A stretch of DNA of 64,000 nucleotides from assembly GCA_016748015.1 (NCBI GenBank), contig JAAOMT010000445.1:62001-126000 (forward strand), given 5' to 3'. Source of the DNA: Geosiphon pyriformis uo1. Lineage: Eukaryota; Fungi; Glomeromycota. Within the stretch, counting starts at the first letter, position 1. Each line of letters opens with the position of its first letter. The notes beneath the pieces are model-generated. The model was not told where the DNA came from, ran no database searches, and saw only the letters and a list, made by a program, of their open reading frames with translations. Shown piece after piece: positions 33,921 through 64,000 of this stretch. The translations under genes and the position numbers were made by a program.

Positions 33921-34473
33921 TATTATTTAAGTAGAAAAACCAATCTAAAGTTATGGAAAAAATATGACCAAAAATATAATGACATGAAATAATACAAGAT
34001 AACACAAAAAATACAAAATAACGTATAACTTAAAATAACATAATACAAAACTCAATAATATATTATAGCACAAAATAATTAATTAAAACATAGAATAATT
34101 AATAATAATATAAAAAAACAAAATAATAACAGAAATAGCAAAGCAAATAGCTAACAAGAACAAAACAATTTTGTAGAACCAAAAAGAATATATAAAAATG
34201 AGTAGTTGTAAAAGTTAGAAAAACAGCCAAAAAAAAATCAATTTTCTTTTCTTATAACTATTACACCTTATGAAAAATAAAAAATCTATTTAAAACTTGA
34301 AATTATTAATATATGGTCACCAATTATCTCATATTCTCTTTAAACTAATTATTGTTTCATATTTTTATTCTGGGCCAGATGCTTTTAGCATAAATGCTTC
34401 GAATTCTTGATAATCTGAACCAATTGTTCTTAATTATGACAATTGATAATACTAATTTATCTTCTTTTATTTT

Positions 34474-39764: not shown

Positions 39765-40719
39765 GCATCATAGCATAAAATTACTCTTATAATTTCTATT
39801 ATTAATTAGTATATATTATTATTATTTCAATTATTACTTATTAATTAATTAAATTATTAAATATTATTACTCAATTAATAACTTGATTTGTACCATAGAA
39901 ATTAAGATGATCAAATTACACAATATTCTGAATCATTTATTATAGTCAAAATTTGCCAAAATTGATGAAAATTTGCCGAACTAATCAATAGTTTGTAGAA
40001 ATAACTTGTAGTTTGCCAAAATATATCTTTAGTTTATCAAAATTAGAGCAAAAAAAAAAGTGCAAGTTCAAAGACTAGTACTACAACAAGTTGTATAAAA
40101 GAAAAGCTTCTATCTTCAAGAAAATATATCTTATCTTCTTATAGTATCTTACCATAGTATCTTACTTTAGATATCTTAATTAGAACAAATTACCTTTTAC
40201 ATATTTAAATAAAAATTAAATATTCGAAAACCAAATTAGTTGATTATTGCACTTGAAATTCTCTCAACACAACTAATATTTTGAAATTAATTAGTTACCA
40301 ATTTCAGTAATCTGTTAGTGATTCCAGGCCTAAATAGAAAACGTTTTTCTTGTTAGAATTCTATTTCTTTTACATTTCTTTTATTTTTCCTTTTTTTTCT
40401 TATTATAATCATTAGAGTAGCCTATAGACAAAATTCCTGTAGAAGAGTTGACTTTCATAGCAAAGTAACTACATATTTTTAGTGAACTTTCAGATGAACA
40501 ATTTTTGGGAAAGAGTCGACATTTATTACAACATAGCTACATAAAATAATTGACAAGAAATTGGTCATTTCACTTATAAACTTAGCAGTTCAAATTATAG
40601 GAGATAATTTGAAGATAAATTCAGTTATTGGAGATTTAATTGCTTCCAGAAAACGTGAAATTAGCAACAGACAAATATTAACAACATTCAAAAAAAGAGA
40701 CCAAAAACCTTCAGTAATA
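39765..40719 (+). mobile_element. Solo LTR of the element-A family
   Basis: Reverse-complement similarity to 52025-53005 along nearly the whole length, ending ...ccaaaaaccttcagtaata (cf. ...ctccagtaaca). No flanking internal domain. Confidence 0.85.
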
Positions 40720-40849: not shown

Positions 40850-42730
40850 TTAAGAAATTGACAAAAGAAAGTTTGTATATATTAAAATTATTAAAAAATT
40901 ATTAACTTAATTATAAATTTTATTAAACAAATTAATTTTTGTAAATAAAATTTTAATAATACTAAATTTATTATTATATAAATAATTATAAATACCAAAA
41001 AAACAATAATTTTATCATAAAATATTAAATTAACAAAATAATTTACAAGAATTTTAAATATAATAAAAAACTTAAAAAAAAATTAAAAAAAATTTATATT
41101 TAATAATTAAATAATTTAATTTTTAGTACTTATAATAATAATAATATTTAAAAATTTTTTATAAATACAATTATTAAAAAATTTGAATAAAATATACTTT
41201 TTTTATATATTTTATAACTATAATTAAAACAAAACTTAAAAAAATTGTTATTTTTTTATTTTTTAAAGCAATTAATAATAATAATATTTTTATTAAAATA
41301 TTTATAATTATAAAAATTACTTAATAATATTTTGTAAAAACACTTTTTTTAATTAAAAGTTTTTTTAAAATAATTTTAGTATAATATTTTAAATAGTTAA
41401 ATAATATGTTTTGTTTGTAATTTAACATTTTTAATAATTAATATAATATTAAAAATTTTAATATTTGAAAATTTTGGTTAATTGAATTGTTTATATAATA
41501 AGCTAAAATTTATTAATAATAACTAATAGTATATAATATTTAATATAATAATTAGTTTATTTTAGTGTTTTTTATTTTTTTAATAAACAATTTAATAAAT
41601 TAATTTTATATTTATTTTTATGTTTTTTATTAACCAATTTTTGATGTTATAATCTCAGTATTTTTTTTAATTAATTCATAAAACAAAATAAAACAAAATA
41701 AAAAATAAAATAAAAAAATAAAAAATTAATAGTTATAATAAAAAATTATTGTTTTTAATATTGTTAATAATATTGAATTTACTATTAATATCAATTAAAA
41801 ATAAATTGTAATTTATAAAATTTAAATAGTAAATAATTTAAATAATAATTTTATTAAAAAAGTATTTATTTTAAATAAATTTATAATTATCAAAGTTATT
41901 TAGTAAAAATTTAATATATTTAATTTTTTTTGTTATTAATACTACTATTATATATACATAAATCTTTATAATATAAGTTTTTGAAATCTTTAATAATTTT
42001 TATACTTTTTTTAAATTATTATTAAAATTTCTAATATTTCTAAAATTCTTGATATTTTTGTTAATATTTTTGAATTTTTTGGTATTATATAATTTGATAC
42101 TTTATACTATATTTCTTAATTATTACTTATTTTTTATATTACTTTATAAATAAATTTATAATTTATTAATTTGTAAATTAGTATTATAATTTATTAATTA
42201 AATTTGAATATTTTGTTAATTTAAAAATTTTAATAATAAAGTTTTTTATATAATAAACAAAAATTTAAATAATAACTATTAATAATACTTAATATCTAAT
42301 TTTTTAACATATTAATTAATTATTTTGGTGTTTTTTATTTTTTTAATAAGCAATTTAATTATTAATAAGTTAATTTTATATTTATTCTTATATTTTTTAC
42401 CAAATAATCTGTAATATTATAATTTTAAAACTTTTTTATGATTAATTAATATAAAAAACAAAACAAAATAAAATGAAAAAAAATGAAAATAAAAAAATAA
42501 TAATAAAAAAATCAGTATTTTGTTAATAATAATTATCAAAAATTATTGTTTTAATATTATTAATATTTGTTTTTTTAATAAACTAAGTATTAAAGTAAAT
42601 AGTTTTAATAAGATAAATAATAATTTATAAATTTAAATAATAAAAATAATCAAATATTTTTTTTGCTTTTAATGCTATAATTATATATATATAAATTTTT
42701 ATAATACAAAATTTTTAAAATTTTTAAAAT
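40850..42730. repeat. Near-pure A/T block with an internal direct duplication (~41488-41830 vs ~42241-42640)
   Basis: Shared strings such as tatttt[a/g]gtgttttttattttttt aataa.caatttaat and aaaaattattgtttt.aatatt.ttaat, about 770 bp apart. Confidence 0.7.
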
Positions 42731-42736
42731 TTAAAA

Positions 42737-45700
42737 TTTTTTTTTTATTCATTTAATGAGTGAAATCCAAATACTGCCTAGTATAATACATCAAAAAATT
42801 GATTTAAACTAGGTGTGAATCATGCATTTACTACACATAACCAGTTACTCAAGCCAATCAAAATAACACTAAGCACTTATATAAACAGAAATAGGACTCC
42901 CAATACCTGAGAGAAACAAATGAGACTTACAAAACTTAAAACTTATACCAAATGTCTTATCAATACCCAACAGTCTAATTATATCAGCAGAAAATGATGA
43001 AGACAGCCCAGAAATTGGTTTTAAAATTGACTCATCAGATAGTATCAGCCCATTCTTTTCCATAAAAGCACAATGCTTAGCACGAACTGACCAAATCTTT
43101 TCTCTAAAAGCAAGACAAAAACTACACACAAAGTCTACCATCTTCCAACTCACACTCTTGGAGTTTTTGAAAACTGATGCAGCTTCATGAAGCCAGTTCT
43201 TAAAAACAAAACTCTTGTAAAGAACTGTACACACCACAGCATTTGAAACACAAGATGACAACAATTGAAACACACACAAAAAGGAGATGGAAAGACCAGA
43301 AATTGTGCACCATATAGTTGCATGGACATCTAACAAACAATAACAGGTTGAATTATCAAACATGCAAGAAAAAGCATGATCTGAGACTTCAACATTGTCA
43401 TAATACAGACACAATACACTGAGGTAACATTTATTATACAATTACTTCCGTACAGCAACTAGTAACTGACAATACAAAGCTTTCATGAAATATGTTTGAA
43501 TACTAGCAGTAAGTTTACTAGTAAAACCTGCAGCCATGTGTAAGTCAGGATGCTATACTGAGAAAAAGCTACACCAATTCACATCTGAAAGCAAACTACT
43601 ATCTAAAACACCAGAACCAAAACCAAGTTCCCAGCATACATGATGAATAGAGTGAAAAATCTCATGCACAAAATGTCTAAAATTCCCAGAAACAACACTA
43701 TCCTTTGCTAAAATACAATGTTCTTCTAAGCTGAGAAAAAAGCACCAAGAGGAATGAGAAGCTGCATCAGCAAGAGCATCAGCATGTTCATTACCTAAGA
43801 TACCCGAATGATCTTTAATCTTGTACCAAGTAACACTTAAATTCTTTTTCCTAATAATGTTCACAATATGCTGACATTCAACCCAACACCAATTCCAAAA
43901 ATCTGAATGCACCAAACTTAATTTCAATATGCATGCATCCAAGGCAGCTTGACTGTCCATGAAAAAATGAACCAAGTTGAAGGAGGGGACACACTCAAGA
44001 GCTAAAGCTATAGTCTATAGTTCCGCTAAAGTAAAAAACAACAGACCAGAAACCCTAACTCCTAAATCCAAGTTGATGTCCTTAAAAAAGACTGCTGTAC
44101 CAGCCCTCATGTCAGTACTGTCCAAGTTCTGTAGAGATTTATTCATATATACAGATATGATATTATTCATGACATCCAACAATTGATTACAAATAAAACC
44201 AAACTTATTAGACCTTAAAACACTTGAAATGCCAGAATCATCCAAAGAGGAAAAATAAGCAGAGGGAAAGGCTAAACCACCAAGAAAATCAACAAATAGC
44301 CTAAACCAGTCAGGAACAAGGCCACGTGGGTTCAGCTTTTTCCAATGCTTGAAGGTTTTTCAGTCAAAAATAGTATCTTTCTGACTATGAAGTTGCTTAA
44401 CAAAAGCTATACTATAATAATGAAGAGAGGGAAAAAACCTATAGAACTCAGATTTACTAAGAACAGTTAACATAAAAGTGCTATTCTGAATACAGAAGGA
44501 GCTAATAATTGGACCACTCAAAGATAAGTTGCAATCAAGAAAAATATGAACCACACCTGCCAGAAAATTATTGGAAGGGCTGACTCTTATGTGAGCTGGA
44601 GAGTTCAAAAAATAAAGTGGACACCAACTCAGAGCTTACAAGTTAAGAGACCTGTGTGAAAACAAACATCTCAAAATCTCAACAGAGTTCACAAAACACA
44701 CAACAGAAGCCACCTTGTTTTCAGCCTGAACTTGCTCAAAAAATTTCAAACCATACAATGAAGAGTGGTAAAATACATCACTAGGAAAGTTGTGAGGAAG
44801 ACCAGATTTCAATTTTAATACTTTGTGAACCATAGCATCCCACTTTTCACACACCCCAATAAAAACAAAATTGAATTGCATCCTGTAGCCAACAATAGGA
44901 TACAGAACAGCAGACACCAAATATGAGAACTGTTTATCTGAAATGGTCTTCCTCAATACAAGATTGACAAAAAACCTGACATCCGAATGTGTCTTAACTA
45001 AACTAAGCTTTGATAAACCATCTGTAAACAAAAAGATACCCAGATAGCAATAAGATTCCCCTTTCTTGGCAATGGAAATAGGCAAGCCACTGATTGACAA
45101 AGAAAGACATTCTACCCCACAATTAATAGAAATGACCACCGTTTTGTCATTATTAATGGAAATGTTATTGATTCTAAAAAATTCACTGGCAACATTAAAG
45201 ATGTGTTGTGTTGCAGTTTGACTGTTACCAACCCATATCATGTCATCAACAAAAGTACCAGCAACAAGAAAGGAGATCAACCCAGCCTGAGATTCTACAT
45301 GACCAGTCCTGGTAATAAAATAAGAATTCAACCTATAACCACACACACTTTTTTGCCTCTTGACTTCACATAAAAGGGGATTATAAAAAATGTGCCAAAG
45401 AAGAGGTAAGAAAACCTCCCTCTGATTCAAACCATCAAGCACCCAATATCCATTCATCAAACCAAAATTTGTCATAATTCTGTTGACACAATCATTGTGT
45501 ATGCCACCAAAAAATCTAATGAACTTATCACACATTTTTATTCTGACCAAGTTTCTCCTAAGATGCTTTCAATTAACTGAATTGTAGGCCTTCCACATGT
45601 CTTGCAAGACCAACCAGAGCTCATGGTTCTTTTCCAATGCATTCTCAACCACCGAACCTATGGCAAAAATAGGAGATTACATGGTCATACCCTTTAAAAC

Positions 45701-45742
45701 CGAGAAATTGTCCCTTTGTAAAATGTCAAAAGTGTTGCATGC
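42737..45742 (-). mobile_element. LINE (non-LTR retrotransposon), 3' part: RT C-terminal half, RNase H, C-terminal Cys/His knuckle, 3' UTR, polyA; pseudogenised
   Basis: LVLQDMWKAYNSV, GLNQREVFLPLLWHIFYNPLL and TFVDDMIW (RT); AEL.TIALAL, DSQAA and KIKDHSGILGNEHADALA (RNase H); CLYYDNVEVSDHAFSC; stop at 42869; AATAAA followed by an A-tail (T-run 42737-42746). Confidence 0.92.
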
Positions 45743-46529
45743 TGTTACAGTTCAAAAATTTAATAGAAATTATAAATAATATAAATTAGCCAATCATGAA
45801 ATAGCACAGCAACAATTTATAAAAAGAAATGATTTGCAAGCACTATTGTGCAAAAACAGCAAGCACTATTTCACAATAGCAGCAAGCACTATTTAAAAAT
45901 AACAGAAATAGAGTATTACAAGATGTTATTTTGTAAAACAATAATTATATATATATACAATAGTTTTTAATGATGAAAAAGAACAAGCTTCAACTAAAAG
46001 CAACAAATATCTAAATAAAATCTTATTCAAAAAAAAAAGAATTAATAAAAATAATAAATTGAATAAACATCACAATTACGAAATTAACAATAGAATTCAC
46101 ATACCCTCTCTAGCAAATGAAACTATCATTCTATCTTTAAACTCTTTGGAAGAATAATTTCTGATCAAAATTATTCATGTGGTTATTAATTAAATTAAAA
46201 AAGCTTTATTATATACTTAGAGAAATCGCAAAAAGACCATTAACACTTCATGTTTTTAGATTAGAGAAACACATCAGAAAATTGCAAGGATAGCCTCAGA
46301 GAAGACCCCAGACAGTGGGTAGATTTCAGATTAGCCTCTGGGAAGGAGTACACAACATACAAAGACAACTAGAATTAAAGAAAAGACTTATATCACAACA
46401 TCAAGAGAAAACCTTCAGTACATTATCATTAATATCCAATACATAAAATAGAGAAACTCACGAGAGACTAATTGCAATTAAAATAGGAGATCAACAATTA
46501 AAATATACCAAAAAAACTATCTCATAACA
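45743..46529 (+). repeat. 5' LTR of element B
   Basis: Direct repeat of 62518-63314; contains ~21-bp subrepeats (gcaagcactatt...). Confidence 0.95.
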
Positions 46530-49500
46530 TTTAGTGAACCCTACAAGAAAAGAAAATCAAAAAGAAAATAATAATTAGCAATAATTTATTGCTAAAAAAG
46601 AAAAAACAAAAGTGGCGACAAAAACTCCTAACCTTACTGTTCTTGAATTCTGCCGTGTTATTTACACACAAAATCAAAATGATCTTGAATTACCAGAAGG
46701 GTGTTGTCCAGCAGAATCTGTTCTCACTTATTATATCAACACTAGAATAAATTATCATATAAGAAAAGAAGAAGAACCACATGACACAAAACTTGGATTG
46801 TATAGAAAATTATCACAATACACTACAAAGAAAATAGCAGTAATAGCCGCAACTATTGTCAAAATCCATCAAAAAATTGAGCAATATGCCAATAAAAATT
46901 TTTCAATATTCACAGGAAACACTAAGAAATGCGCCAACAAAACCAAAAAAAATTTAAAAACTAATCAGGAAAGTAACCAGCAAAAACTAGGAATACTTGC
47001 TCAAACACCAAAAAAAACTGTCATTTAATCAATAAAAAAACAATGTATTTATTTACCAGAAAATAAATCATACCATTTTTCACCAGAAAATAAGATACAA
47101 ATTCTATTAGGAGCTGCATTATTATCAACATCAACTCCACAAATGCCAAAAACTCCTAGTTATATTGATAAAATTAAACAATGTAACTGGGGAGACATAC
47201 CAATTACAGGAGGATATTCATTGTTATTCCAAAACTCTTTTTTTTAACCAAAATTCAGAATGAGATTTGAAAACCATGAAGAGGAGTCTGAATCAAAATC
47301 TGAAAAAGAGACCAACAAAAAAACAATCACAAGACTGGTTACTAGAACAAGCAGCCAGTTTAGAAACCAAGAAACTTGTGATTAAGAGGAAAAACCAGAT
47401 ATAAAGAAAGCCACCTTTAGGAATGCTCAAAGAAATATCATCCCACTTTTTCTTAGACTAATAAGCCCACCAGCAGAAAATGACGACAAAATAGCCACAC
47501 TATACATCGCAAGACTAACAGATTTCTCAGAAGAGAAAGAAGAAATGGACATGTACATGTGACTTAAAGAAGCACAAAAAGCCATCCAGGCAAATAACTG
47601 GAATGACTAAAGAGCAATTCAAATATTATTTTTCTTTCTGAAAGGCACAGCTGACTCGTGATATTAAAGCCTGGAAACAAAACTCATGAGCTTTGTCAAA
47701 TTTAAAAATGCACTTCTGGAGTATTTTAACAACCCAAATGCCGTAATTCAATTACAAAACGAATTCAATATTATCAAGCAAGATACTGGTGAAACTGTCA
47801 CCCAATACCTTGCTCGATTCAATTGAATTTGCTATTAGATTAAAGCAATTGAACAAGGATATTACACTGATTTTCAGGTTTTAAATTAGTTTATTAGAGG
47901 ATTAAAAAGCAGCATTTTAGGAAGAGTATGCTCTGCCCACCTTAATTCCTTACCAGAAGCCATTATGCTCATTAGAGCTCTTGAATCAGCTAAGAAAGAA
48001 GCTAACCATAGTCAAATGGTTAACATAGTAATGGAAGAAAATAAGACAGAAACATTAGAGAAAAGAGTAACACAATTAAGAGAGGAACTCTTTAAGAAAA
48101 TAGAAAGTTACCTCATCTCAGATTCAAAAAGAAATACATACCAACCACTCCAAAAACACAGCCAAAAAGTCAGCAACAGTTGAAATAATTGCTCATCACA
48201 CCAAGAATTCAGAACAGAAATGCGTACCTGCTATTTTTGCAAATGTGTAGGATATTTGATTAGTCAATGTCAAATGCGAATGATACAGGAAGCATGCAAA
48301 AATAATTATTATGCACCACCCCAAATGCCCAGAAACCAGTACATACCAATACCATGCCAATATCTCACTATGTATCAAAATCAAGAAACTTATCAGCAAC
48401 AGTCCATGATAGCCAACCCGAATTGGCATCCCGAGCCCCGAAATCAGCCCATGTGGAACTAAAACATGTTGGTCCAGAGGAATTCAAACCATGCTGGAAC
48501 CAGTCAGCAAACCAATTCAAACTACCAAAATTATCAACAAATTTACCTTAATATACCAAAAAATCTGATTATCAGAAACAATAATGATAAAAACATAAAC
48601 AAAACCAAAAATTCCTCCAACAAATTGAGCCAAACAATATTACCAGTAGTTGTTACCAAAGATAACAGCCTCGCAGCTATTTTTTCTTTTGAATTAGAGA
48701 AAAATGAGACTATGTTCAGTGGAGCAGCATTGGACAAAAAACACCTAATTACTGCTATATATACAGAAGCCACTGTAAACAATACCCCAATCAAACTTAT
48801 CTTAGATAGCAAATCTGCTGGAAGCATCATAACGCTTCAACTAGTAAACCAACTGGGTTTCAAAGTTGATAGTGCTGCGACATCCCAAATCATAACAGCC
48901 AATAGAAGTACAAAGCTGTCTCATGGTAAAATCGACTCATTTTCTTTTGAAATTAATAGCATAGTAATACCTACAAAAGTATTAGTAATGGATACTACAC
49001 AATATTAAGTGTTAGTAGGGAATGACTGGCTAACAAAAGCCAATACCACCTTAGACTAGACCACCCAAAAGCTTCTGATCAATTATAATGGCCACCAGGC
49101 CAGAATTTCAGCCACTTGTGGCCACTTCCAAAAACCCAGCATCAACCAAAAACCTACCTTTGAATTTGAGGAAAATCCAGCACTACCAGCCATCAAAACT
49201 TATTAGCTCTCTTGGGCTAATAACCAAAAAACAGGACTACCAGCCATACCAACGTGGACCAGTGAAGGAAGATCCAAATGGAACCAAATAAGTCTATAAA
49301 AAAACCGCCAGCAATGCAAACCAAAACTAGAATATTCGGTTTGCAATAAGAAACTCTTATCTATGATTGCATGCAGCACACCAGACAAAAACTCAAGAAA
49401 CCTCACCTACTATTATTGTAACCATTATAACAAAAAAAAATACAGTTACCCAGAAAGACATGGAAAATGAAATGAAGAACTGTGTCTCGCTTGTGAAGAA

Positions 49501-50079
49501 CCATTACCAAAAAAGTGTGACTGGATCGACATGTCAGGCAGAGGAGAAACATGTGGTGCAACTTGCCAATACATGATCTTCATCTGTGACTGAGTAAGAA
49601 AAGAAACGCCATTCGAAGCAGGATTCAACAGAGTGTTAAAAAGACTATAGCACTACTCACATGATAAGAACAAGTTGTACAACACTGCACAGGCCAAAGT
49701 AAGAGAAGAAACTGCCAAAGAAATATGACATTGGAAAGAGTCAGCCGAAGTAGCCAACGAAGTTGTCAGCTACAATATGTTCAACCCAGTGGACAAATTC
49801 CAAGACTACTACCAACAACTATGCCCCACTTGACAAAAGCAAGAACAATATCTCACCCAAATCAACACTTATCTCTGCAAAAACTGTCTTACCCCATGCC
49901 AAAATCAGTGCTGTAAAGAGTGTCAAGACAAAAGGAACTTAGAAAGAAAAATGGAAATTGAGAATTAGCATTCTCAAAATCAATAAATAAATCAATAAGA
50001 CTTACCTGATGGTCCCAAGTCAAAAAAATTTGTAGTCTATACTGACCTAGAACAGATAATTGACATCTGATACTTTGAC

Positions 50080-50500
50080 AACGGACACTTAGGAATAATA
50101 TCCAAAAGAGCCCATCCAACTGACACCAGATTCAATTTATGTTATCTGGAAGACAAATCCACAACATTACTACCCAGGAGCATCACCAAATTGACCTGAA
50201 AATAGTGGTTAAAATTCTGCCAGAAATAATGATTCAAATAGCATCGCGATCAAGTCTCGTAAAAAAAGGAATAAGTATTCAAGGAGGAGTAATTAACTCT
50301 GAATACACTGGAAATTTGATGGTTTTACTACAGAACAATTCAGAAAAACCTTATATAATTGAATCTAAAGAAAAGATTGCACAAGCAATTTTTTTACCAT
50401 TGGTAAAAATTGGGAAATTTGTGCCAGTAGAAAATTGTGAGGAATTGATACAAACAATAAGAAGAACTTTTGGTTTCAGATCAACAGGAAAAGGAATTGA
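50080..50500 (+). pseudogene. dUTPase domain in the pol of element B
   Basis: RAHPTDTRFNL, QIASRSSL, GGVINSEYTG, KIAQAIF, RRTFGFRSTG: all five trimeric dUTPase motifs, with a frameshift near 50190. Confidence 0.9.
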
Positions 50501-52024
50501 AGCAAATTTTGCTGAAACAATAAAAAAAAAAGCAAATTAATTAAAACTGAGCAGTCAATCATGCTCACATCTTATGGAAAATCAGAAATTAAAATAAAAA
50601 GAACAATAAAAGATATAAATTTAATATTTGAGCCCCATCCAAAAACTTGTTAACAGTTTCTCATAGGATTTACTAATCTTTTTATTCCAGCTGACAAAAC
50701 ACAATAGATAAAAATTCTTATCATAAATACCACAAAAGAGCTCATATACATTCCAGAAAACACCATTATAAGATATCTTGAAACAGAACTAGAAAACGTG
50801 TCAATACTACAAGAAATTTTAAATTTCCCAGAAATTGCTCTCTACTGTAAACTCACTTCAATAAATTGACAACAACTGTTGGAATGCTATCAATTTATGC
50901 CAGAAGAATTGGCCAAATTAAACATTGGAACAATGGATCTTGACCAACAGTGACAATTAAAAGCATTAATTTTAAAATACTCTGATATATTTTCATGAAA
51001 TGGTAAATTTGAAAAAACCAACTTGGTTCAACACCAAATCCCCACTGAAGACACCAGACCTGAAAAACAATATGCTTACTGTGTTCCACTAATGGAGCAT
51101 AATTTTATCAGAGAAGAAGTCCAAAGCATGTTGAAAAAAGAAATAATTCAACCATCAATGAGCTCATGGTCCTCACCAGTTGTTTTAGTAAGGAAAAAGA
51201 ATGAAAAAATTAGATTTTGCATTAACTATCGCAAACTAAACAGCAAAACAACCAAAGACTCATACCCAATACCATTAATTGACAAAATCTTCAATGTTTT
51301 TGGAGAAGCAAATTGGTTTTCTACACTTGACTTGACCAGTGAATACTGGCAAGTGGAAATGAACCCAAAAAACAGGCATAAAACAGTATTCACAACACAA
51401 AATAGCAATTATGAGTTCAATGTAATGCCATTTGGATTGATAAACACTCCCATGACATTCCAAAGACTAATGGATGTAATTTACTCTGGAATTCTGTGAC
51501 AATCCGTTGTTGTCTACTTGGATAATACAAATGTTTTCTCGCCAAAATTCATGAATCATCTCCAATATTTACAACAAGTTTTTGAGAGATTGAGACATGC
51601 TGGACTTAAATTAAATTTAGAAAAATGTTTCTTTGGGAAAAATAAGCTAGCATTTCTAAGACACATAGTTGGAAAAAATAGAATAAAACCAGATTCATCA
51701 AAAATAGACAAAGTGAAAAATTTTCCAATACTTCAAAACGTTTCAGAAGTTAAAAGCTTTTTAGAACTTGCATCTTATTACCACTGCTTTGTAAAAAACT
51801 TTTCAAACATTGCCAAACCTCTTAATTATCTACTATCTAAAAATGTGAAATTTGAATGGATCGAAACACAACAAAAAACTTTTAAGTATCTTAGGCAAAA
51901 ACTCATTGAATCACCAATAATGATCTATTCAGATTTCAACAAAAAATTTATTTTGGCCACAGATGCCTCTGGAACTGGACTTGAAGCCATTTTTTTACAA
52001 AAAAATGATAATGGAAGAGAACAT

Positions 52025-53005
52025 TGTTACTGGAGATTTTTGGTCTCTTTTTAGCTCTTGTATGTTTGTTGTAATACTGTTAATTCATGACTATGGGAAG
52101 TATTTGAACCTCCGATAACTGAATTTTATTTTTAAATTATTTCCTATAATTTGAACTGCTGGGCTTATAAGTAGAATGGTCAATTCCATGCCAGTTGCTT
52201 TATGTAGTTACATTGTAGTAAACGTCAACTCTTTCCCAGGAATTGTTTGTCTGGAAGCTCACTAAAAATGTGTAATTACTTTGCTGTGAAAGTCAACTCT
52301 TTTACAGGAATCTTGTCTGTAGGCTACCCTAATGATTATAATAAGAAAATAAAAGAAAGAAAATAAAAGAAATGTAAAAAAAATAGAATTCTGTCAAGAG
52401 AAACATTTTCTATTCAGGCCTGAAGTCACTAACAGTTTACTGAAATTGGTAGTTAATCAATTTCAAAATGTTAGTTGGGTTTTGGGGATTTTTCTAAGTG
52501 CAATAATTAAAGAATTTGGTTTTTCAAATTATTTGATATTTATTTCTTTTTGTGTATGTAGAAATAGTTCTAAGTAATAAATCTAAAGTAAGATATATTT
52601 TCTTGAAAAAAAAAGCTCTTCTTTTATACAATTTATTGTAACACTATTCTATGAACTTGAACTTTGTTCTTTTTTACAATTTCACTAAACTAAAGATACA
52701 TTTTGGCGAACTACAAGTTATTTCTGTGAACTATTAGATATTTCAGTGAACTGTTAATTATTTTGGCAAATTTCTACAAATTTTGGTGAACTTTTGAATG
52801 TTACATATTTCGGAGTATTGCATGATTGATCATTGCACTTAGGTTATATTTGTGTTATGTACAAATTGGGTTATTAATTAAATGATAATTTCGGACATTT
52901 TGCTAATGTAATAGGTGATAATTTGAAACAATAATATATGCTAATTAATGATAGGAATAAAGATAATTTCATGCTAAATAATATCTCTAATTTCGTCTAG
53001 TAACA
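52025..53005 (-). repeat. 3' LTR of element A
   Basis: TGTTAC...TAACA; direct repeat of 60920-61889. Confidence 0.96.
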
Positions 53006-53689
53006 TAATCTCCTTCTCAAGACTGAGCTCCATCAAAGTCCAAGTACTGTCTGTAATTTCCAGATAATAATCCAAAATTATTGAAGAAATTTGGTTTGAA
53101 AATTGTTGAAATTTCAATTCTGTGAGCTTTTCAATTGAATCTTCAAAGATTGTAAAATTGGGTTTTGTAGGACGTTTTCACAGATGTGAAATAGGTCATA
53201 AAGTCTAAGAGCAGCTCTTAGTTTATAACAACTGTTTGTAGATCCAGCTGTTGTCTTGAATTCATTGTGGAGTTGTTTCCGAATAGCTTTTTTTGTGAGA
53301 TTTGCTGCTGTAAGCTTCTGTTTTTGTTTGTGAAGTGTTTTTTTAATGTAGAAATATTTATATATTGAAGTATAGTCATAGTTTTTTTTATTAAGACACA
53401 GTTGAAGTTTTTGTTGAATAGTAGCATTTGGTGAAATACTAATAGGAGTGAGCATTAAGTTTTCTCTTAAAGCAAGCTTTAAAAGTTCTGGCAAGTAAAT
53501 TCCAGAATAACTTCTTGTGTTCTTCTTATATGGGTGATATTTTCGTGAATTTGGGGCTAAATTTGTAACTACTTCTGTTTGGGTATAATTAATGTGGCTT
53601 CCAGTAACAGTAATAGATAATTCGAGTATTGTTTTTAAAGCTAACATTAGTTTTTGGGATAATTGTTAAATGTTTTAAGGAATAGTCAT
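52974..53689 (-). pseudogene. ORF3 of element A (post-integrase accessory ORF, unknown function)
   Basis: Own ATG at 53689; homologous to 37802-38500; small frameshift near 53135; the frame continues ELSLEKEIMLLDEIRDII* through the PPT into the LTR. Confidence 0.8.
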
Positions 53690-56600
53690 TATAAGAGATT
53701 TGAAAATAAAAGAAAATTATTTTTGGTGTATGGGTTTTTATTATTTTTGCTTTGTTTTTGTGAGATTGTTTCTAAATTATAAGGAGATAACTATAATAAT
53801 AAATTTAAGTTAAGTGTTCAAGTTGGGAGGTTGTTCAATGATGACTATTGGTTCTAAATTTTGGGGAATATCTTTGGGATTGATTAAAAGGGAATGTGTA
53901 CCAATTTGTGGAATTAATAGTTCAGGATTGTTTCTAGAATTATAGTGTTTTAAACAATCTTCATGTGCAACTTTTGCTAAGATTTTGTCATCAAGTCTTA
54001 GCTTGTATGATCCGTTGTCTAAGACTTCATGGATAAAGAATGATCTATCCCATTTATTTTCAAATTTTTCACTCTATTGTTTTTTAGCTTTAGTTTTGTG
54101 TAAGAGAACTTTGTTTTCAATTTTAAATCCATTGGTAACTGGAGGCAATTTGTTGTCATGCCATTCTTTTTGTTAAGCTTGGAAGTATTTAATATGGGTG
54201 GCTGCTATTCGTTGTTTTTCTTCCAATGTGCTAAGCAGTATGTAGGCTCTTCATTGTAGTGTTTCTTGAAAGTTGTCTTTATTAATTGGTTGTACTGAGT
54301 ATGTTTCTATTATGAAACTAATTGGTAACGTTGCTGTCCTTCTGTAAGTTAAATCAAATGGTGTGTGTTTTGTGGTATCTTGTTTTAGTGTTCTATATGC
54401 TAGTAACACTGATGGAATAAAGAGATCCTATTCTTGCTCAAAATCAGTTGAGACTTTGGCTAATGATTCACACAATGTACTGTTGAAACATTTTACAAAT
54501 TCATTTGTTTGTGGATAGTAGGGCAAAGATAATGGTCTTTTAATATTAAATCATCCACAAATTTCCTGGATTAAATTGTTCACAAAATGTGTTCCTTGAT
54601 CAGATAAAAGTTCTATTGGACATCTATGTCTACAAATAATGTCTTTGTAAATGAAGTTTACTACTGATTTCACATCTGCTTATTGAATGACTTGGGCTTC
54701 AGACCATTTGGTGAGATAGTCTACAGCTACTGCAATATAACGGTTTTCTTGGTTTGTAATAGGGAGTGGTCTGACTAAATTGATACTAACTCGATTAAAA
54801 GGCTGTCCAACTTTGATTGGGTTTAAAGGTTCTGTAGAGCGAGTTTTTCCTCTTCTTTAACAACTATCACAAGACTTAATGTATTCATGAATGTCTTTTC
54901 TCATTTGAAGCCAAAAATAATATTCTAGTGTTCTTTGGGTGGTGCTGTCTTTTTCTAGGTGTGTTGATGAAAAGTCTGAGTGCATGTTATATAAAATGGT
55001 TTCTTTTTCATGTTCTTGTATTAATCTGAGTAGATTGTCTGGGTTTCTGAAGTTTCGATAATAAATCATGTTGTTGTGTAAGAAGTATTGTTTGGCTTGT
55101 TGTTGTAACCAATGTTTTTTATTTGAGAACCAATCTGTTGGGATTGTTAATGTCTCCAAATATTGTTTAAGGTTGTTGTAGTTTTCAGAGTTCATTGTTT
55201 GTTGTTTTGTTGTTAATTCAAATGGGTGTTGGTTTTGTATTCTAATCTTGCCTCATTCTTGAGAGACAATTAACATTGGTGTGGAGTTTTTCTGATTTGT
55301 GGTGTACAATGTATTGGTAGTTGGCTAGAAATCCTGTCTATCGGATTTGTTTTGTGTTTAGCTAAGTGTTTTTGTTCTGAAGCCATTTGAGTCCAATATT
55401 ATCAGTGATAATATTAAATTCTTTGGATCTAAGGTAAAGGTTGAAGTGATGTAGAGCCCAGATTACTGCTGCAGTTTTTAATTCTGTTGCAGAGTAGTTC
55501 TTTTCGGCTGGTTTCAATGTTCTACTAGCATAAGCAATTACTCGCTTATTTCTATTATCATCTAACTGTAATAAGATGACACCAAAGGCAGTATAAGAGG
55601 CATCTGTTGCTAACTGAAATTGGTTGCTGAAATCTGAGTAGGCGAGAATTGGAGCTGTTATTAGTTTTTCTTTGAGGATTTCAAATACATTTTGGTGTTC
55701 AGCAGTCCATTTGTATTCAATGTTTTTGGTGGTAAGCTGGTTGAGAGGTTTTGCGATTTCTGAGAATTTTTTGATAAACTTCCAATAGTAGGAGGCTAAC
55801 CCTATGAATCCTTTTAGTTCTGTAGTGTTTTGAAGAGTTTTGAAGTTTTTGACAGTGCTGATTTTTCCAGAGTCTGGTTTGATTCCATTTTTACTAATGA
55901 TGTGACCAAAAAAGGCCAAGCTTGTTTTTCCAAAGTAGCATTTTTTGATGTTAAGTTTCAGTCCTGTTTTTCATAATCATTGAAAAACTTTTCACAAATG
56001 TTTTAAGTGTAATTCAAATGATGAAGAATAAACATCAGTATTGTCAAAATAAATGACTACTGACTTCCAAAGGAGTCCTTTGTACACAATATCTAATCTC
56101 TGAAATGTTGCTGGTGCATTGCATAATCTGAAAGGCATTACATTGAATTTGTAGTTTTTTCCTTGGGTTGTGAAGGCTGTTTTGGAATGATCTTTGGGGT
56201 CCATGGCAACTTGTCAGTATCTGCTTTCTAGATCTAGTGTTGAAAAGTATTTGGCCTTTCCAAGGGCATCCAACATATCATCAATTCAGAGAAAAGGATA
56301 GACATCTTCAATGGTGACACTATTGAGTTGTCAATAATCAATACAAAATCGTATCTTTCCATTTTTCTTTTTAACTAAGACCACAGGTGAGGCCCATAGA
56401 CTTATTGATGGTTGGATAAGCCCATTGTTGAGCATCCGTTGTACTTTTTTGTGGATAAATTGGTGACTTTCTGGAGTAACTTGGTAGGCTTGCTGTCACC
56501 TTAGTTTGACATCTCCTGTATAGATTTGGTGTTAGACCAAATCAATTCTTTCTAAGTCATTGTTGTTTTCAGCAAAGATATCAGCAAATTCTGCAATTAG

Positions 56601-57119
56601 CTCTTTAAGCTGGCTCTGTTATTGTAGTTCAAGTTGTCCCATGTTGATTCGAGATAGTTTTTCCATAACAACATGGTAGTTTTCAAAACTGAAGTTTGGG
56701 TTGATTTTTGGTAGTAAATGTTCAATAATTTCAGAGAAATCAGGAACTGTTTGGGGTAATTCTTGTTGAAAGATATTACTGTGAATAATTCTAATTTCTA
56801 AGTTATTTAATAAAACTATGGGGAAATTGTTGGGATTATAAAAAGTAACTCGGATTTTCTTTGTTCCTTCTGGAATATAAATGTTTGGGATCGAAATATT
56901 ATGTTCCAAACAGATTTGTTCATTGGACTCAAAAATTTGTTGTGTGGTTGTTGGCTTTTCATAAGTGTAAATTTCAGGGTGTTTTCTAAAGAGTGAAATG
57001 GTAATTGGTTGTAGAAGTCATAAAATCTGGTGAGATTTTTTCTGTTCATTGAGGGCTATGTTTACTGGAACTGTGAATTATCTAGTTGAAAAAATCATTA
57101 TTTTTTTCTTATTCTGAGT

Positions 57120-57520
57120 TTTTGGGTTTCTCTTTCACTTTTTCCCAATAGTTCTCTTTAATTGACTAATTGTAAACCTGAAATATTGATTAAGAGTAAA
57201 TAAATGGCTTAGGCAATTTTCTCAGCATGTTCAATTTTAAATGGCTTGTCAGTTTTGTTTTGGAGTATTACTGTTATGTCACCAGTATATCCAGCATTGA
57301 TTATTCCTCCTCTGACATTGATTCCTTTGCTTGCCAAAGAGGACTGGGAGGCAATTTGAACCATTGCTCTTGGTGGGATTTCGAAAGCAATTTTGAGGTT
57401 GATTTTTGTGAGAAATTTGGGTTTGAGAATAAGAGTATCTTTGTCTGAATATTTTAGGTTATATTCAGCATCAATTTTATGTGCTTTTTTGGGTTTTATT
57501 CCTTGTCTATTGTTGTTGAA
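57120..57520 (-). pseudogene. dUTPase domain in the pol of element A
   Basis: KAHKIDAEYNL, QIASQSSLASKGINVRGGIINAGYTGDI, EKIA*AIY. Confidence 0.88.
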
Positions 57521-60500
57521 GTATTTGAGTTATAAGACAGGCTGATTTTCGATGAGATAGATGGGTGTTGTTTCAATTTTTTCTGTTGCTTCAGGTTTTC
57601 CAAATTCAATTTCATATTCATCACTTTCACTGGGCAAGGGGATGCTAAGAACATAGCATTCAGAACACCATTGTTCATCACAAGGCATTATGCATTTCTT
57701 ACATAATTTAATGTTCATTTGTTCTAGCCGTTGAGCTTGAGCTTCTTTAGTCAGGTAGATGTGACTTGTGATTTGATGGTACACTTCTACTTTATCTTCA
57801 TAATCAAATCTAGCTAATTCCATGGTGTATTCAATGTATTCTGCTTCTTTCATTTGACGAACATTTTCTTTGGTAGCTTTATTAACTAATGTCATTGTTA
57901 GATCAAAAATTATTTTAGCATTATGGGGGTAGTGATAAAGTTTGTTGAGAGCATTGTTGTATGCTGCATCAAAAGGTGTTCCTCTTTTGACTTTTTCTGA
58001 AATTGATAAAGCATATTGGCAGGTTTGATTGTAGACTCCTCCTCTTATTGCTACATCAATCCAATTGCATTTTTCTGATAGCATATCTCTACAAGTCAAA
58101 CAAGGGGTGTTGTCCTATTTTCTGCTTCTTTTTATTAAATGGCCCCATTGTTCTCTGTGGCAAGCTTTGCAGTAATAACAAGTATGATTTTCATATTCTT
58201 CTTCAGGTGAAATGCAGGCTCCCATTAAGGAAAGTTTTTTGTGGCAGTCCTTACATTTGAGTAGAATGTAAGGGTGTCATTTCTTTGGTTCTGGTTTAGA
58301 ATATGGGATGTTCCATCCAGAGGTTTCTGGTTCCTCTGGATATGAGTTTGTTGCAAAATATGTTTGCTCAGTTTCTTCAGCCCAGTTAGATGTTAATTCA
58401 AGTACCATAAATGTTTCGACTACAGGCTTTTCTTTCTCTTCTTCAAATTCGAAGACAGGGGTTTTTTCTGATTGTTTGTTGAATGTACCACAAGTAACAA
58501 GTACTCAGGCATGTTGTCCTTGATAGGAGAGTTGTAATTCTTGGGTTTCCCAGTTTAATTTTGCATTGGCTTTTTGGAGCCAATTATTTCCGACAAAAGC
58601 TTGATACTGGGGCATGTTCATTACAAGAATTTTGACTGGAATAGTGATTTCATCAAGAGTAAACAGAAAATTGTCAATTTCTTCTACTGGAGTCTTTTTC
58701 ATGCCATCAGCAATAACGATTACTGTTTGAGCTGGTCAGTTGACATTTCTCTTTAACTGTTGTATTAACTAGTAGGTAATGATACTTCCAGTGGATCCAC
58801 TGTCTAAGATCAAGTGAATTGCCTTTTCTTTGACTTCTGCTTCAGTGTACATAGCAGTGATTGCTTTTTGTTCATTGGTGGCTGTATTGCTAAGCAAGAA
58901 TGGTGACTCATTTGCTTCGAACTCAAAAGAGAATATATCTAAAAGGTTGGCATTTTCAGCAATTCTGGCTGGTGGGATTGTGGTAGAAATATAGGAATAA
59001 TTTTGTTGTCGTGCTGCAGCTCTACCTTCTGAGAGTGCAGTATGGTGAAAATTCTGTTCTTCAGGTATTGTAAGATAGCTAGGTTGAGTATGATAATGGG
59101 TGGGTCTTGGCTGAGCTGGATTTTGGGGAACTAATTGGTTATTTGGGTTGATTCTGTTGTTGTTTGTTGTGAATCAGTTTTGTGGTGCAAATTGGTTTTG
59201 TTAAACCAATCTTCGAGCAGGTACTTAGTAATGTTGAATGGGTTGTCAATACTATTGTTGCATTGGCTGTGGAGCAGGTTGATAGTAATCAGTTTAATAT
59301 TGTGGTTTTGGTGAATAGTAAGTTGGTGATAGTGGTAGTTGGTAATAAGATTGTTGTGGCGAAGGGTAACATTGATTACTCCTGTTTTGTTGGTCTTATT
59401 GTAGCTTTCTGCAATCTCTTTTCTAATGGCCAGGGATTCCACAGTAATGGTAATTTTAAGGCTGGTTATTAGAGGATAATACGAAGTTGTTTTAATTCCG
59501 TCTTTGGGGTGGTTGATATCTTTGGGGTTGCTGTTGTTGTTGGTTGGTGAAATAGTTTTCGATTTTCTTTGTAAGTTGGTCAATTTTCTCTTCAGCTGTT
59601 GAGCTGGTCTTTCTAATGACTAAGTTCATAAGTTTTGTTTGGCTTCTTTCATGGCCATTTCATATCTGAATGGCAAAGTTTAAATCTTCTGAAGCATGTG
59701 GGCAAATCTTTTTAATCAGTTTATCCTTTAAACCAGCAATAAATTGATCCAAGATTTGAGCATCAGAATAATAATCATTAGTTTTAAGTTGGTGAATTCA
59801 TCTAAAAAGTTTGTTGAATTTTCTAATATAAGTCATGACAGATTCGGAGGGTTCTTGTTTGATATTACGAAAACAATTTCAAAGTGTAATTGAGGTGTTG
59901 TTATTGGTGAATTGTTCTAAGAAAGCAGTTTTGAAAGCTGTCTAGTCATTAAAAGGGGTGGTCAAGTTTTCAAACCATTCACCTGCTATTTCTTTGAGAA
60001 AGTAGGGAATTGTTTTTAACATTCTGACAACATTCCATCCATTTGCATCTCCAGCTTTAGTAACTTGGTCGAACTATTCTTGGGAACTGGTCTCAATGTC
60101 TTCTCCATTAAATTCAGAATTTTTTGTGATGTATGCTGTCATTTCGTCTTCTTTGTTTTCACTGTTTATTAATTCTTCTTCAGATATTTCAGAGTTGTTT
60201 TCTTTGTTTGCTGCTGTTTTAGAGTGTTCACTTCGATTTTCAGCTAGAAAGTCAAGGAGATTGGAACTAGTTTGAAGGGGTTCTTGTTGTCTGGTGGGAC
60301 TTCTGGGTGATGTAAAATCTTCTAGTCTTGCAAATCAATTTAAGAGTAAATTAGGTGTTTGTGCTTGTGTAAGTGAAGCTGGAAAAGGTGTGATAGTAAG
60401 TGGAAGTTTTGAACTGGTTTCTTGTTCAGATGTTTGTAAGTGTTTGGCAGTTGTTTTTGGTAGTATTGGAGTATTTGGGGTGGTTTTTGAGTATTGCTTC

Positions 60501-60919
60501 AATTTTTGTTTGCCTTTGTTGCTTGTTTTTGTCTCTGATTCAAAATCAATAGAGTATTAAGACTGCACTAGATATGTTTCTTCACAGTACTTGATAATGT
60601 TAAAATTAAGTTCTTGAAAGTAAGTGGCAAGTGTTTTACTGTTAAGGTCTTCAGTTTCCAACTGTGAATAGTGTACTAAATTATTGTAAAGATTGTTTCT
60701 AACTTTTGAGATATTGTAATTTTCAAAAAGATAATTGTTGATGCAGTTTTCAATGTATTGGTATATTGATTTCTTGACAACATTAATTCCATCTGGAATG
60801 TTGAATCTTTGCTTGCAGTGAGTGTAAATTGACTGGTAATACTCTAGAGTTGTTGCATCTAGTGTGGTCACCACTTTGAAGTAGTTTTTGCTGTGTTGTT
60901 TTTGTAGGAGAGCACCAAA

Positions 60920-61889
60920 TGTTACCGGAGGTTTTTGGTTTCTTCTTAGCTCTTGTATGTTTGTTGTAATGCTGTTAATTCACGACTATGGGAAGTGTTT
61001 GAACCTCCAATAACTGAATTTTATCTTCAAATTATCTCTTATAATTTGAACTGCTGGGCTTATAAGTGGAATGGCCAATTCTGTCATGTAGTTACATTGT
61101 AATAAACGTCAACTTTTTCCCAGGAATTGCTCGTCTGGAAGCTCACTAAAAATGTGTAGTTACTTTGCTGTGAAAGTCAACTCTTCTACAGGAATCTCGT
61201 CTGTAGGCTATCCTAATGATTATAATAAGAAAATAAAAGAAAAAAAATAAAAGAAATGTAAAAGAAATAGAATTCTGTCAAGGGAAACATTTTCTATCCA
61301 GGTCTGGAGTCACTAACAGTTTACTGAAATTGGTAGCTAATTAATTTCAAAATGTTAGTTGGATTTTGGGGATTTTTTCAAGTGCAATAATTAAAGAATT
61401 TGGTTTTTCGAATTATTTGATATTTATTTCTTTTTGTGTGTGTAGAAATAGTTCTAAGTAATAAATCTAAAGTAAGATATATTTTTTTGAAAAGAGAAGC
61501 TCTTCTTTTATACAACTTATTGTAACACTATTCTATGAACTTGAACTTTGTTCTTTTCTACAATTTCACTGAACTAAAAATACATTTCGGCAAACTACAA
61601 GTTATTTCTGTGAACTATTAGATATTTCAGTAAACTGTCAATTATTTTGGCAAATTTCTACAAATTTCGGCGAACTTTTGAATGTCACATATTTCGGGGT
61701 ATTGCATAATTGATCATCACACTTAGGTTATATTTGTGTTATGTACAAATTGGGTTATTAATTAAATGATAATTTCAGACATTTTGCTAATGTAATAGAT
61801 GATAATTTGAAATAATAATATATGCTAATTAATGATAGGAATAAAGATAATTTCATGCTAAATAATATCTCTAATTTTGTTTGGTAACA
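60920..61889 (-). repeat. 5' LTR of element A
   Basis: Adjacent to the PBS; ~11-12 bp deletion near 61085 relative to the other LTR. Confidence 0.96.
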
Positions 61890-62517
61890 ACATGTAATTG
61901 CTTATGTTAGTAGAAGTCTCAGTATAACAGAGCAAAACTATGCAGCACACAAACTGGAATGCTTAGCAGTAGTCTGGAGTTGTGTTTACTTTGACATATA
62001 TTTATGGTACAAACCTTTTGATATTACCACAGATCATAGAGGTCTGGTCTGGTTAAATAACAAGAAAGCGCTGAAAAAAAAATACACCAGATGGTCACAA
62101 ATATTAGCACTATATAATTATATCATCAAATACAAAAAAGGTACCAAAAATGCCAATGCTGACTGTTTGTTAAGAATAAGACACACATAAAAATCATGAA
62201 TCCATCCATCAATTAGAGTATTTGACAAAACAACAATCTAACAATTAGAAAGTTTTATTGGAAAAACCAACAATACATTCAATTCAAAAAGCAGTTTACA
62301 GAATTTTTAAAGCATTTGAAAAATTGTCACAAAGTATTACTAGATCCAACCATAAACATAATAACAACCAACAGTATTAGACAACTTACCAACTTACAAT
62401 TTCAAGAATTACAACAACAAGTTAATAATACAGTATTGGATTACTATAGCAACTTAGAATTCAATAAAAAAATTAACTTTGATTTTGACAGAGCTCAATT
62501 TTGAAAGGAGGGAATAA

Positions 62518-63314
62518 TATTACAGTTCAAAAATTTAATAGAAATTATAAATAATATAAATTAGCCAATCATGAAATAGCACAGCAACAATTTATAAAAA
62601 GAAATGATTTACAAATAACAGCAAGCACTATTGTACAAAAGCAGTAAGCACTATTATGCAAAAGCAGCAAGCACTATTTAGAAATAACAAAAATAAAGTA
62701 TTATAAGACGTTATTTTGTAAAACAATAATTATATATATATACAATAATTTTTAATGATGAAAAAGAACAAGTTTTAACTAGAAACAACAAATATCTAAA
62801 TAAAATTTTATTCAAAAAAAAAAGAATTAATAAAAATAATAAATTGAATGAATATCACAATTATGAGATTAACAATAGAATTCACATACCCTCTTTAACA
62901 AATAAAACTATCATTCTATCTTTGAACTTTTTGGAAGAATAATCCCTAATCAAGATTATTCATGTGGTTACTAATTAAATTGAAAAAGCTTTATTATATA
63001 CTTAAGAAAATTGTGAAAAGACTATTAACACTCTGTGTTTCTAGATTAAAGAAACACATCAGGCAATTGCAAGGATAGCCTCAAAAAAAACTCCAAACAG
63101 TGGGTAGATTTCAGATTAACTTCTGGGAAAGAGTATACAACATACAAAGACAACTAGAATTAAAGAAAAGATTTATATCACAACATCAAGAGAAAACTTT
63201 CAGTATATTATTATTAATATCCAACACATAAAATAGAGAAACTCATGAGAGACTGATTGCAATTAAAATGAAAGATCAATAATTAAAATATACCAAGAAA
63301 ACACTCTCATAACA
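62518..63314 (+). repeat. 3' LTR of element B
   Basis: Follows the PPT; the terminal TG has mutated to TA; ends cataaca. Confidence 0.95.
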
Positions 63315-63318
63315 ATGC

Positions 63319-64000
63319 CAAAGAAATCCTGTCTGAAAAAATCTTAGAAAGTATCTTGTGGGCAGTCTTAATCAAGGCAATAGGTCGGGTGTTTGTAAGA
63401 ACCCCCTTCCACTCATAGGACTTGGGAATCATCGAAACCCAGGCTTTCTTCCAAGCACCTGGCACTGACTTATGGGTCAAACAAAAATTCAGAAGAACCA
63501 AAAGCATATCCAAAACCAATTTGTCGCAATGCTTCCAAAGCTCATTTGAGATCCCAGAAAGACCGGCAGCCTTGCCATCAGGTAGATCAAAAATCACACT
63601 AAGCAACTCATCAAAACCAACTGAACACATCACATTCAAAAAAGTATTGTTAAAAACGTAATCCAAAGGCCAATATTGACGAGACCATAATTCAGAAAAA
63701 TTTTCTACCACTTCGCATTTTCTAGTCCAGCCCTTCATAATAACATTCACTCTGGCTTTAACCAGATTGGGTTCTAAAATCAGTTCATTTTTAATCATCA
63801 GATGGTCTAAAACCACCTTTCGAAAAAGATGCTTTAACATGCTTTTTATTGTGTAACTTTTATTGGCCACAAAATTTTCCATTCGTTTATCAACAGCTAA
63901 TATAATTCTTGACTTCTTAGCTTGCAAAAACTTAGCAAGCTTGGATGCATAATATGATTTTTACACACTGAAAAGAGCCAAACATACACAATTAAAATCC
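63319..64000 (-). mobile_element. Same LINE, upstream part (RT N-terminal half); continues past the right edge
   Basis: LPDGKAAGLSGISNELWKH...WVSMIPK...NTRPIALI. Removing element B restores ...SDRISLA-C-NTFDIL... in frame. Confidence 0.92.

Follow-up and report, generated by a model that had tools for sequence, protein, structure and literature searches.

Decayed Ty3/Gypsy-type elements of Geosiphon pyriformis point to a lineage with an integrase gene behind a fixed stop and two putative Gag starts

Canonical Ty3/Gypsy long terminal repeat (LTR) retrotransposons usually encode their integrase (IN) in the same open reading frame (ORF) as reverse transcriptase (RT) and RNase H (RH), as stated in PMC12440569 and PMC2864245. 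The latter places a dUTPase between protease (PR) and RT in PosPlaTy3-5 of Postia placenta and in basidiomycete elements, reports the enzyme also from Phanerochaete chrysosporium elements and Tuber Tmt1, and infers independent captures of it; rotifer and planarian elements carry it in the same position according to the text available from PMC5408684 and PMC6431247. Here we describe three elements, A, B and C, in a window of 64,000 nucleotides (nt) from the fungus Geosiphon pyriformis uo1 (assembly GCA_016748015.1, contig JAAOMT010000445.1, positions 62,001 to 126,000, forward strand), whose genome consists to 41.2% of LTR elements (PMC11952901, available text). Element A (45743-63314, plus strand) is interrupted within its RNase H by element B (52025-61889, minus strand). 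We assign a probability of roughly 55% to the reading that these copies derive from a non-chromovirus lineage having one leader-Gag-PR-Cys-dUTPase-RT-RH frame closed by a fixed stop, a separate integrase ORF, a separate third ORF (ORF3), intracellular replication and two Gag starts.

A and B share one order of modules, namely leader, capsid, CCHC knuckle, PR, Cys-rich domain, dUTPase, spacer, RT and RH, and their proteins align over 952 residues with 29% identity (E = 1e-91). This bears out the proposal, made in a preliminary description of this DNA, that two diverged elements have an expanded layout in common; the integrase, which was counted as part of that layout, is missing from A and, where it is present, lies outside the RT-RH frame, with a stop preceding it. 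Pfam detects Gag, protease, dUTPase, RT and RNase H in A and B and integrase in B, and finds no match at its cut-off for leader, Cys region, spacer or ORF3 of either element. Profiles of the B family match A in the leader (1e-5), Cys domain (1.5e-43), dUTPase (5e-31) and spacer (5e-5). When the Cys region of B served as query, the best 107 of 349 candidate matches were all G. pyriformis gene models; among these 107, chosen by that very query, 59 have the Cys domain followed by dUTPase and 11 the complete front order. In values that are rough (single decayed copies, and a protein-guided alignment that inflates identity at codon positions 1 and 2), the proportion of differing sites between A and B is 0.62-0.83 at synonymous sites (pS), which are close to saturation, and 0.25-0.50 at nonsynonymous sites (pN) in all eight modules. 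The pN values are 0.25 for dUTPase, 0.26 for RT, 0.35 for protease, 0.38 for the Cys domain, 0.45 for capsid, 0.46 for the spacer and 0.50 for the leader, that is, the Cys domain is conserved as much as the protease and the dUTPase as much as RT, and the spacer shows the weakest constraint (dN/dS 0.55). For B and C, dN/dS is 0.20 in RT-RH and 0.43 in the C-terminal part of the integrase. All modules thus look to be under purifying selection, unlike neutral cargo, and the earlier expectation of selection on the extra modules across families holds.

The RNase H of A, B and C is closed by a stop, and so is that of L001, a near-intact element on a metagenome contig that was found with a pattern of polypurine tract (PPT) and LTR and that excludes the element's front part. 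L001 reads RT-RH, stop, integrase (with one internal stop), a 316-nt gap, an open ORF3 of 230 amino acids (aa) and LTR, and is 58-59% identical to B across RT-RH-IN and 30% identical to the B family in ORF3. The gap between this stop and the integrase ATG measures 46 nt in B (+1 frame), 48 nt in C and 24 nt in L001 (both in frame), and each ATG has an A at -3. We then consider 894 contigs aligned to B 55150-55400 (27 rows, the full list), which come from a DNA run containing B and hence probably from the source sample rather than an independent one: as an internal control, the two premature stops within RNase H have reverted in 81% (55364) and 93% (55340) of contig depth. At the terminal TAG, the second stop and the integrase ATG, by contrast, no alternative nucleotide reaches 12%, nor is there any insertion or deletion. 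The terminal stop is thus fixed, unlike the stops of decay. A quick tree was built from 51 rows (47 of 120 RT relatives plus A, B, C and L001; database matches only, A and C being of atypical composition), and in it these four group at 96 inside a 19-row RT-RH clade (SH-aLRT 99). Among the 15 other rows of this clade, eight end within 6 residues of RNase H, three have non-integrase tails, three are Rhizophagus clarus models that leave out the end of RNase H, and one (P0311) carries an integrase fused in frame. Cys/His-rich tails are seen after RNase H in P0296, P0325 and P0332. It is then quite likely that the integrase is made as a separate protein, by whatever route, and somewhat favored that this occurs by re-initiation with packaging in trans.

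The leaders of A and B are homologous (E 2e-7 to 7e-8), with the similarity starting at a GTG in the context AAA-GTG-G, and the leader begins with Val in 21 of 24 models. Across 14 related models, Met accounts for 1 of 3150 leader residues versus 43 of 3150 downstream residues, and a Met stands before the capsid in 64 of 69 models. In 10 of 11 relatives, whose leader sequences differ, no Met occurs from after residue 1 up to a Met located 0-47 residues before the capsid match. All the near relatives that were examined have their Gag extended at the N-terminus, and the leader is therefore a trait of the clade and not a special capture. We consider it probable that ribosome scanning yields two Gag starts, a weak one at the GTG and a predominant one at the capsid ATG. 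The relatives P0292, P0296, P0298 and P0303 share a different leader family, marked by a CxxC and an F-x-x-F-W motif.

Over 44 models, each of the dUTPase motifs I-V is present as the majority state, with motif V found in 21 distinct variants, whereas the motifs are decayed in the window copies; judged by these five motifs, the family enzyme fits a trimeric dUTPase (PF00692). The dUTPase profile has no match among the 120 RT relatives, which points to a gain, probably on the branch of the A/B/C lineage itself; lentiviral, chlorovirus (labelled as generic) and eukaryotic enzymes score alike as its origin (34-39 bits). The Cys-rich domain has 16 Cys columns, of which 11 precede a helical core and 5 follow it, and the three Tyr found at such positions in A are the usual product of decay. 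Its CxxC pairs make zinc binding very probable. Only the helices of residues 84-156 are modelled with confidence (mean pLDDT of the whole model 60), and neither a family match nor a Foldseek match against PDB at E 0.001 was obtained for this domain. Searches of PDB sequences, PHROGs and NCBIfam and a phage tblastn returned only dUTPase matches or sub-threshold noise, e.g. FtsQ, and the best VIA Z values of 6.0 and 6.7 for the models of ORF3 and the Cys domain give no verdict on a new or known fold. Six Cys lie between PR and RT in the R. clarus elements. The spacer is similar to the beta region that links PR and RT in other Gypsy elements, and 6 of the 120 relatives match a mixed spacer profile, the A spacer profile including B-type rows. 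Its interpretation as a second, degenerate dUTPase fold was considered and is unsupported (hhalign E 0.11-0.56, with a faint likeness of strand pattern). Proteins P0376, P0377 and P0077, with a third type of ORF3 and a third type of dUTPase-spacer, indicate at least one more family of this lineage in the same genome.

ORF3 encodes 221-239 aa, and the 120 matches listed, out of 182, are all G. pyriformis gene models. When 1.84 billion proteins were searched with an ORF3 profile, 35 matched, of which five are already-known G. pyriformis models; ten of the 35 were looked up, eight being from G. pyriformis and two from metagenomes, and viral contigs yielded no relative. A has lost its integrase and the first half of ORF3, leaving only an ORF3 remnant 3' of the RNase H stop at 62188; full-length ORF3 of the A type is present in proteins P0374 and P0375. 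C, being truncated at its 5' end, carries RT-RH-IN-ORF3 only and none of the front modules. It had been regarded as an independent confirmation of ORF3, and ORF3 (as well as integrase) is indeed present there; however, C belongs to the group of B (74% DNA identity) and is of limited independence. Helices are predicted for most of the ORF3 protein, along with a short pair of strands near the N-terminus, and its model (mean pLDDT 51) has no Foldseek match at E 0.001 in PDB or BFVD. A weak likeness to the N-terminal domain of YhcG (DUF1016_N) is a lead only: the hhalign score of 21.0 exceeds 30 of 30 shuffles, yet the probability is 2%. The conserved tail of ORF3 overlaps the PPT and the start of the LTR, an overlap that may itself hold this conservation. 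Four accessory modules had been proposed for these elements; the dUTPase turns out to have precedents and the leader to be a clade trait, and the Cys domain and ORF3 are those that stand without a known match.

Four other explanations have to be weighed. The integrase might be joined to Pol by stop readthrough, +1 frameshifting or splicing and be packaged normally at a lower dose, an improbable route for which the stop-free, in-frame gaps of C and L001, the integrase frame of B that is open across the stop, the R. clarus gene models bridging the RNase H-integrase junction and the removal of any packaging problem can all be cited; however, the frame varies (+1 in the B family, 0 in C and L001), a second fixed stop lies in the RNase H frame of the B family, the integrase start retains its ATG with an A at -3, similarity between subfamilies breaks off at the gap, and the R. 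clarus bridge deletes the conserved end of RNase H. Doubtful, too, though somewhat less so, is the account of the leader as an ordinary matrix-like Gag N-terminus that is reached from an LTR ATG or by splicing and lacks Met for compositional reasons. In most relatives the leader opens with an ATG, gene models connect it to LTR sequence, and depletion of ATG over all frames is modest (B, 3 versus 7.9 expected, P 0.024; A, 11 versus 14.9, P 0.09), but in both LTRs of B an identical pair of stops separates the LTR ATG from the leader, and the relatives, albeit partly related and with starts set by gene callers, have no Met in a stretch totalling 1854 residues where 26.7 would be expected, while keeping a Met just ahead of the capsid.

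It is very unlikely that the lineage is an infectious, errantivirus-type element with ORF3 as envelope or fusogen, as the term 'retrovirus-like' used earlier would imply. ORF3 does occupy the env position between integrase and PPT, target-site duplications (TSDs) are of 4 bp, and the 210-230 aa ORF3s of rotifer elements have possible fusogenic roles (PMC5408684, available text), but none of 62 ORF3 proteins has a transmembrane helix (none reaches a hydropathy of 1.6), the five proteins checked have 1-2 Cys and no common RxxR site, and the fold is predicted to be mostly helical. Lacking a transmembrane helix or other envelope signature, ORF3 is very probably a soluble, non-envelope protein. The last explanation, by which the additional modules would be cargo free of selection or chimeras made in assembly, is hardly credible: every copy in the window is dead, and the profiles of leader, Cys domain and dUTPase match none of the 120 RT relatives, but residues are conserved despite near-saturated synonymous sites, 16 Cys columns are common to families 35% alike, the module order recurs among the 107 models, and ORF3 is open in an unrelated sample (L001). 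Barring an alignment artefact, the codon pattern refutes this explanation. Several observations nevertheless weigh against the proposed lineage. Besides the rough selection values, the modest ATG depletion and the uncertain starts of the relatives, the leader begins with Met in 3 of 24 models and the capsid start codon of A reads Ile. P0311 has its integrase fused in frame, the DNA 3' of the stop covers B, C and L001 only, so that a separate integrase is not extended to the 11 relatives lacking it, and recoding is possible case by case, as the integrase frame of B is open for ~20 codons upstream and the gaps of C and L001 are in frame. Of the 32 models that have motif V, no more than 15 continue into the spacer by a strict pattern. 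Finally, dN/dS of ORF3 between B and C, two decayed copies, is 0.42, 0.75 and 0.26 over three parts, and 11 of 58 ORF3 members match DUF1016_N below the cut-off (best E 0.0028).

It is thus tempting to speculate how an active element of the proposed lineage, which likely replicated inside the cell, would have worked. Scanning ribosomes would initiate at a low rate at the leader GTG and for the most part only on reaching the capsid ATG, such that one genomic RNA gives rise to long and short forms of Gag and Gag-Pol, from which the protease would free dUTPase, RT-RH and the Cys domain. There is much to suggest that a trimeric dUTPase released in this manner excludes uracil from the cDNA within the particle. 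The integrase would be translated by re-initiation 24-48 nt past the stop and loaded in trans, and the zinc-binding Cys domain, carried on the polyprotein, is the best candidate for an adaptor that recruits integrase or RNA, although this role itself is rather doubtful. ORF3 could be a soluble helical helper expressed from a 3' subgenomic RNA; nucleic acid binding is, at slightly under even odds, a tentative assignment, and an action against host silencing is a good deal more doubtful. More conjectural still is the combined picture of a three-gene LTR class in which a new zinc domain loads integrase, GUG and AUG starts produce two Gag forms, and an anti-silencing ORF3 family aids the spread in Geosiphon.

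The coordinates of the three elements are collected in the table below.

Table. Features of elements A, B and C in the 64,000-nt window (positions count from its first nucleotide; PBS, primer-binding site).
Element	Feature	Position	Strand	Remarks
A	5' LTR, TG..CA	45743-46529	+	TSD ATGC 45739-45742 before; PBS-like motif after
A	Leader domain	46612-46914	+	Start GTG, AAA-GTG-G context; low-complexity linker to ~47490
A	Capsid; decayed CCHC knuckle	47497-48027; 48229-48270	+	Pfam, family profiles
A	Aspartic protease	48745-49128	+	Pfam, family profiles
A	Cys-rich domain	49327-49944	+	13 of 16 family cysteines retained, 3 are Tyr
A	dUTPase	50074-50500	+	Pfam 3.6e-16; broken by frameshifts
A	Spacer, then RT and first part of RNase H	50555-50926, then to 52024	+	Interrupted by B
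A	RNase H remainder	61890-62190	+	Ends at TAA 62188-62190; integrase deleted
A	ORF3 C-terminal remnant, frameshifted	62209-62514	+	Includes PPT 62503-62514; E 9e-5
A	3' LTR	62518-63314	+	TSD ATGC 63315-63318 after
B	5' LTR	60920-61889	-	TSD 61890-61893; PBS-like TGG motif ~60904-60917
B	Leader	60143-60874	-	GTG 60874; conserved domain ends at 60551, followed by linker; in-frame Met absent upstream of 60142
B	Capsid; decayed CCHC knuckle	59621-60139; 59411-59452	-	Capsid from ATG 60142
B	Aspartic protease	58481-58870	-	Pfam, family profiles
B	Cys-rich domain	57626-58276	-	Helical core with 11 Cys columns before it and 5 behind
B	dUTPase	57090-57520	-	Pfam 5.5e-12; short motif V insertion shifts frame in this copy
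B	Spacer, RT, RNase H	55242-57089	-	Spacer 56640-57089; ends at fixed TAG 55244-55242
B	RNase H-integrase gap	55196-55241	-	46 nt, A/C-rich; contains second stop in RNase H frame
B	Integrase, own ORF	53810-55195	-	HHCC, core, GPY/F region; no chromodomain
B	ORF3	52974-53689	-	Family length 239 aa; one frameshift; end overlaps PPT 53009-53018 and LTR start
B	3' LTR	52025-53005	-	TSD 52021-52024
C	Whole element	35471-40717	+	5'-truncated B relative: RT end, RNase H, TAG 36225, integrase ATG 36276
C	ORF3; 3' LTR	37802-38502; from 38486	+	LTR split by insertion

The window consists of a region of genes (1-31000; CpG observed/expected 0.5-1.3) and one of repeats (32000-64000; mostly 0-0.4). A inserted into a long interspersed nuclear element (LINE) with RT and RNase H (42700-45742 and 63315-63960, minus strand), whose interrupted RT frame is restored once A and one TSD copy are excised in silico. 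The LTRs of A are ~90% alike (71 of 785 columns differ) and those of B ~93% (60 of 968), the differences being mostly transitions and in keeping with B being younger than A. Across both LTR pairs, C-to-T decay amounts to 0.08-0.19 over all contexts and 0.38-0.50 at CpG (few sites); a CpA bias as in repeat-induced point mutation was rejected, because C-to-T changes occur in every context and are highest at CpG, and the pattern is neither of that type nor CpG-only. The front frames contain 26 stops in 1154 codons for A and 25 in 1250 for B, versus 60-110 in the other frames, and at 23 of the 25 stops of B the commonest residue of homologues is Q, R or W, as decay would give. A, B and C are dead, decayed copies of Ty3/Gypsy-type elements. 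Elsewhere in the window are an LTR fragment of the B/C type (32223-32425), another decayed LINE piece (32910-33996), an inverted repeat of 80% identity (33921-34249 and 35007-35347), an open frame of 2339 codons with a 72-nt tandem repeat and without Pfam match (9807-16826, minus strand), and frames with a CUE domain (1-1686) and HATPase_c (26845-27516).

On the prevailing view, the enzymes of LTR retrotransposons enter the particle as fusions to Gag, and a separate integrase gene would thus require another loading route. This feature and the proposed two-start Gag are more surprising than the accessory modules, and the Cys domain and ORF3 would represent two protein families without known relatives that are kept by selection. 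More than 200 'hypothetical proteins' of G. pyriformis (P0001-P0227) are pieces of this lineage, stitched across stops and almost never including RT, which bears on, and has probably inflated, host gene counts for this species. In the literature searched, with subscription papers, supplements, Repbase and GyDB lying outside the search, neither the lineage, nor a Gypsy element with a separate integrase ORF, nor the modules were found described; the available text of PMC3248453 does not mention a dUTPase, and that of an Entomophthora preprint reports dUTPase to be enriched among transposable element domains. The lineage is thus taken as real, selected and apparently undescribed, though the G. 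pyriformis genome paper, Repbase or GyDB may already cover its families. The earlier remark that the combination is not recognized from described lineages stands insofar as no paper was found, and has to be narrowed for the dUTPase between PR and RT, given PosPlaTy3-5 and the rotifer elements.

When compared with canonical Ty3/Gypsy (Metaviridae) elements, A and B agree in their TG..CA LTRs, 4-bp TSDs (for both elements), PBS-like motif, PPT, Gag with CCHC knuckle, Gypsy-type Pfam domains in the order PR-RT-RH-IN, and GPY/F region. They differ in the fixed stop with a dedicated integrase ATG, the Met-free GTG leader, the Cys domain, the third ORF and the chromodomain, which Pfam does not detect in the integrase of B or L001, both ending shortly after the GPY/F region. 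On these characters the lineage is a non-canonical variant of the Ty3/Gypsy superfamily, its integrase lying behind a fixed stop. In murine leukaemia virus, glyco-Gag is made from a non-AUG start upstream of and in frame with Gag, in addition to the downstream AUG, and offers an analogy only, being retroviral and having a membrane anchor in the extension. Troyka was considered as a three-gene precedent and rejected, since its termini are CG..CG and its TSDs 3 bp (PMC12440569, available text), versus TG..CA and 4 bp here. PosPlaTy3-5, the Phanerochaete elements and Tmt1, compared by description only, have no Cys-rich domain, separate integrase or matching ORF3 in the available part of that description. 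The bdelloid elements Juno, Vesta and TelKA likewise combine a dUTPase in Pol with an ORF3 that is often not an envelope (PMC5408684, available text), but theirs encode Env, GDSL esterase, DEDDy nuclease or transmembrane proteins, whereas the Geosiphon ORF3 is without a Pfam match at cut-off and without a transmembrane helix. Closest by RT-RH (48-51% to B) are the R. clarus and metagenome polyproteins (P0292-P0308, P0325, P0332), which have no dUTPase and no match to the Cys domain or leader sequence of A and B, and which likewise mostly end at RNase H and begin with a Met-free leader.

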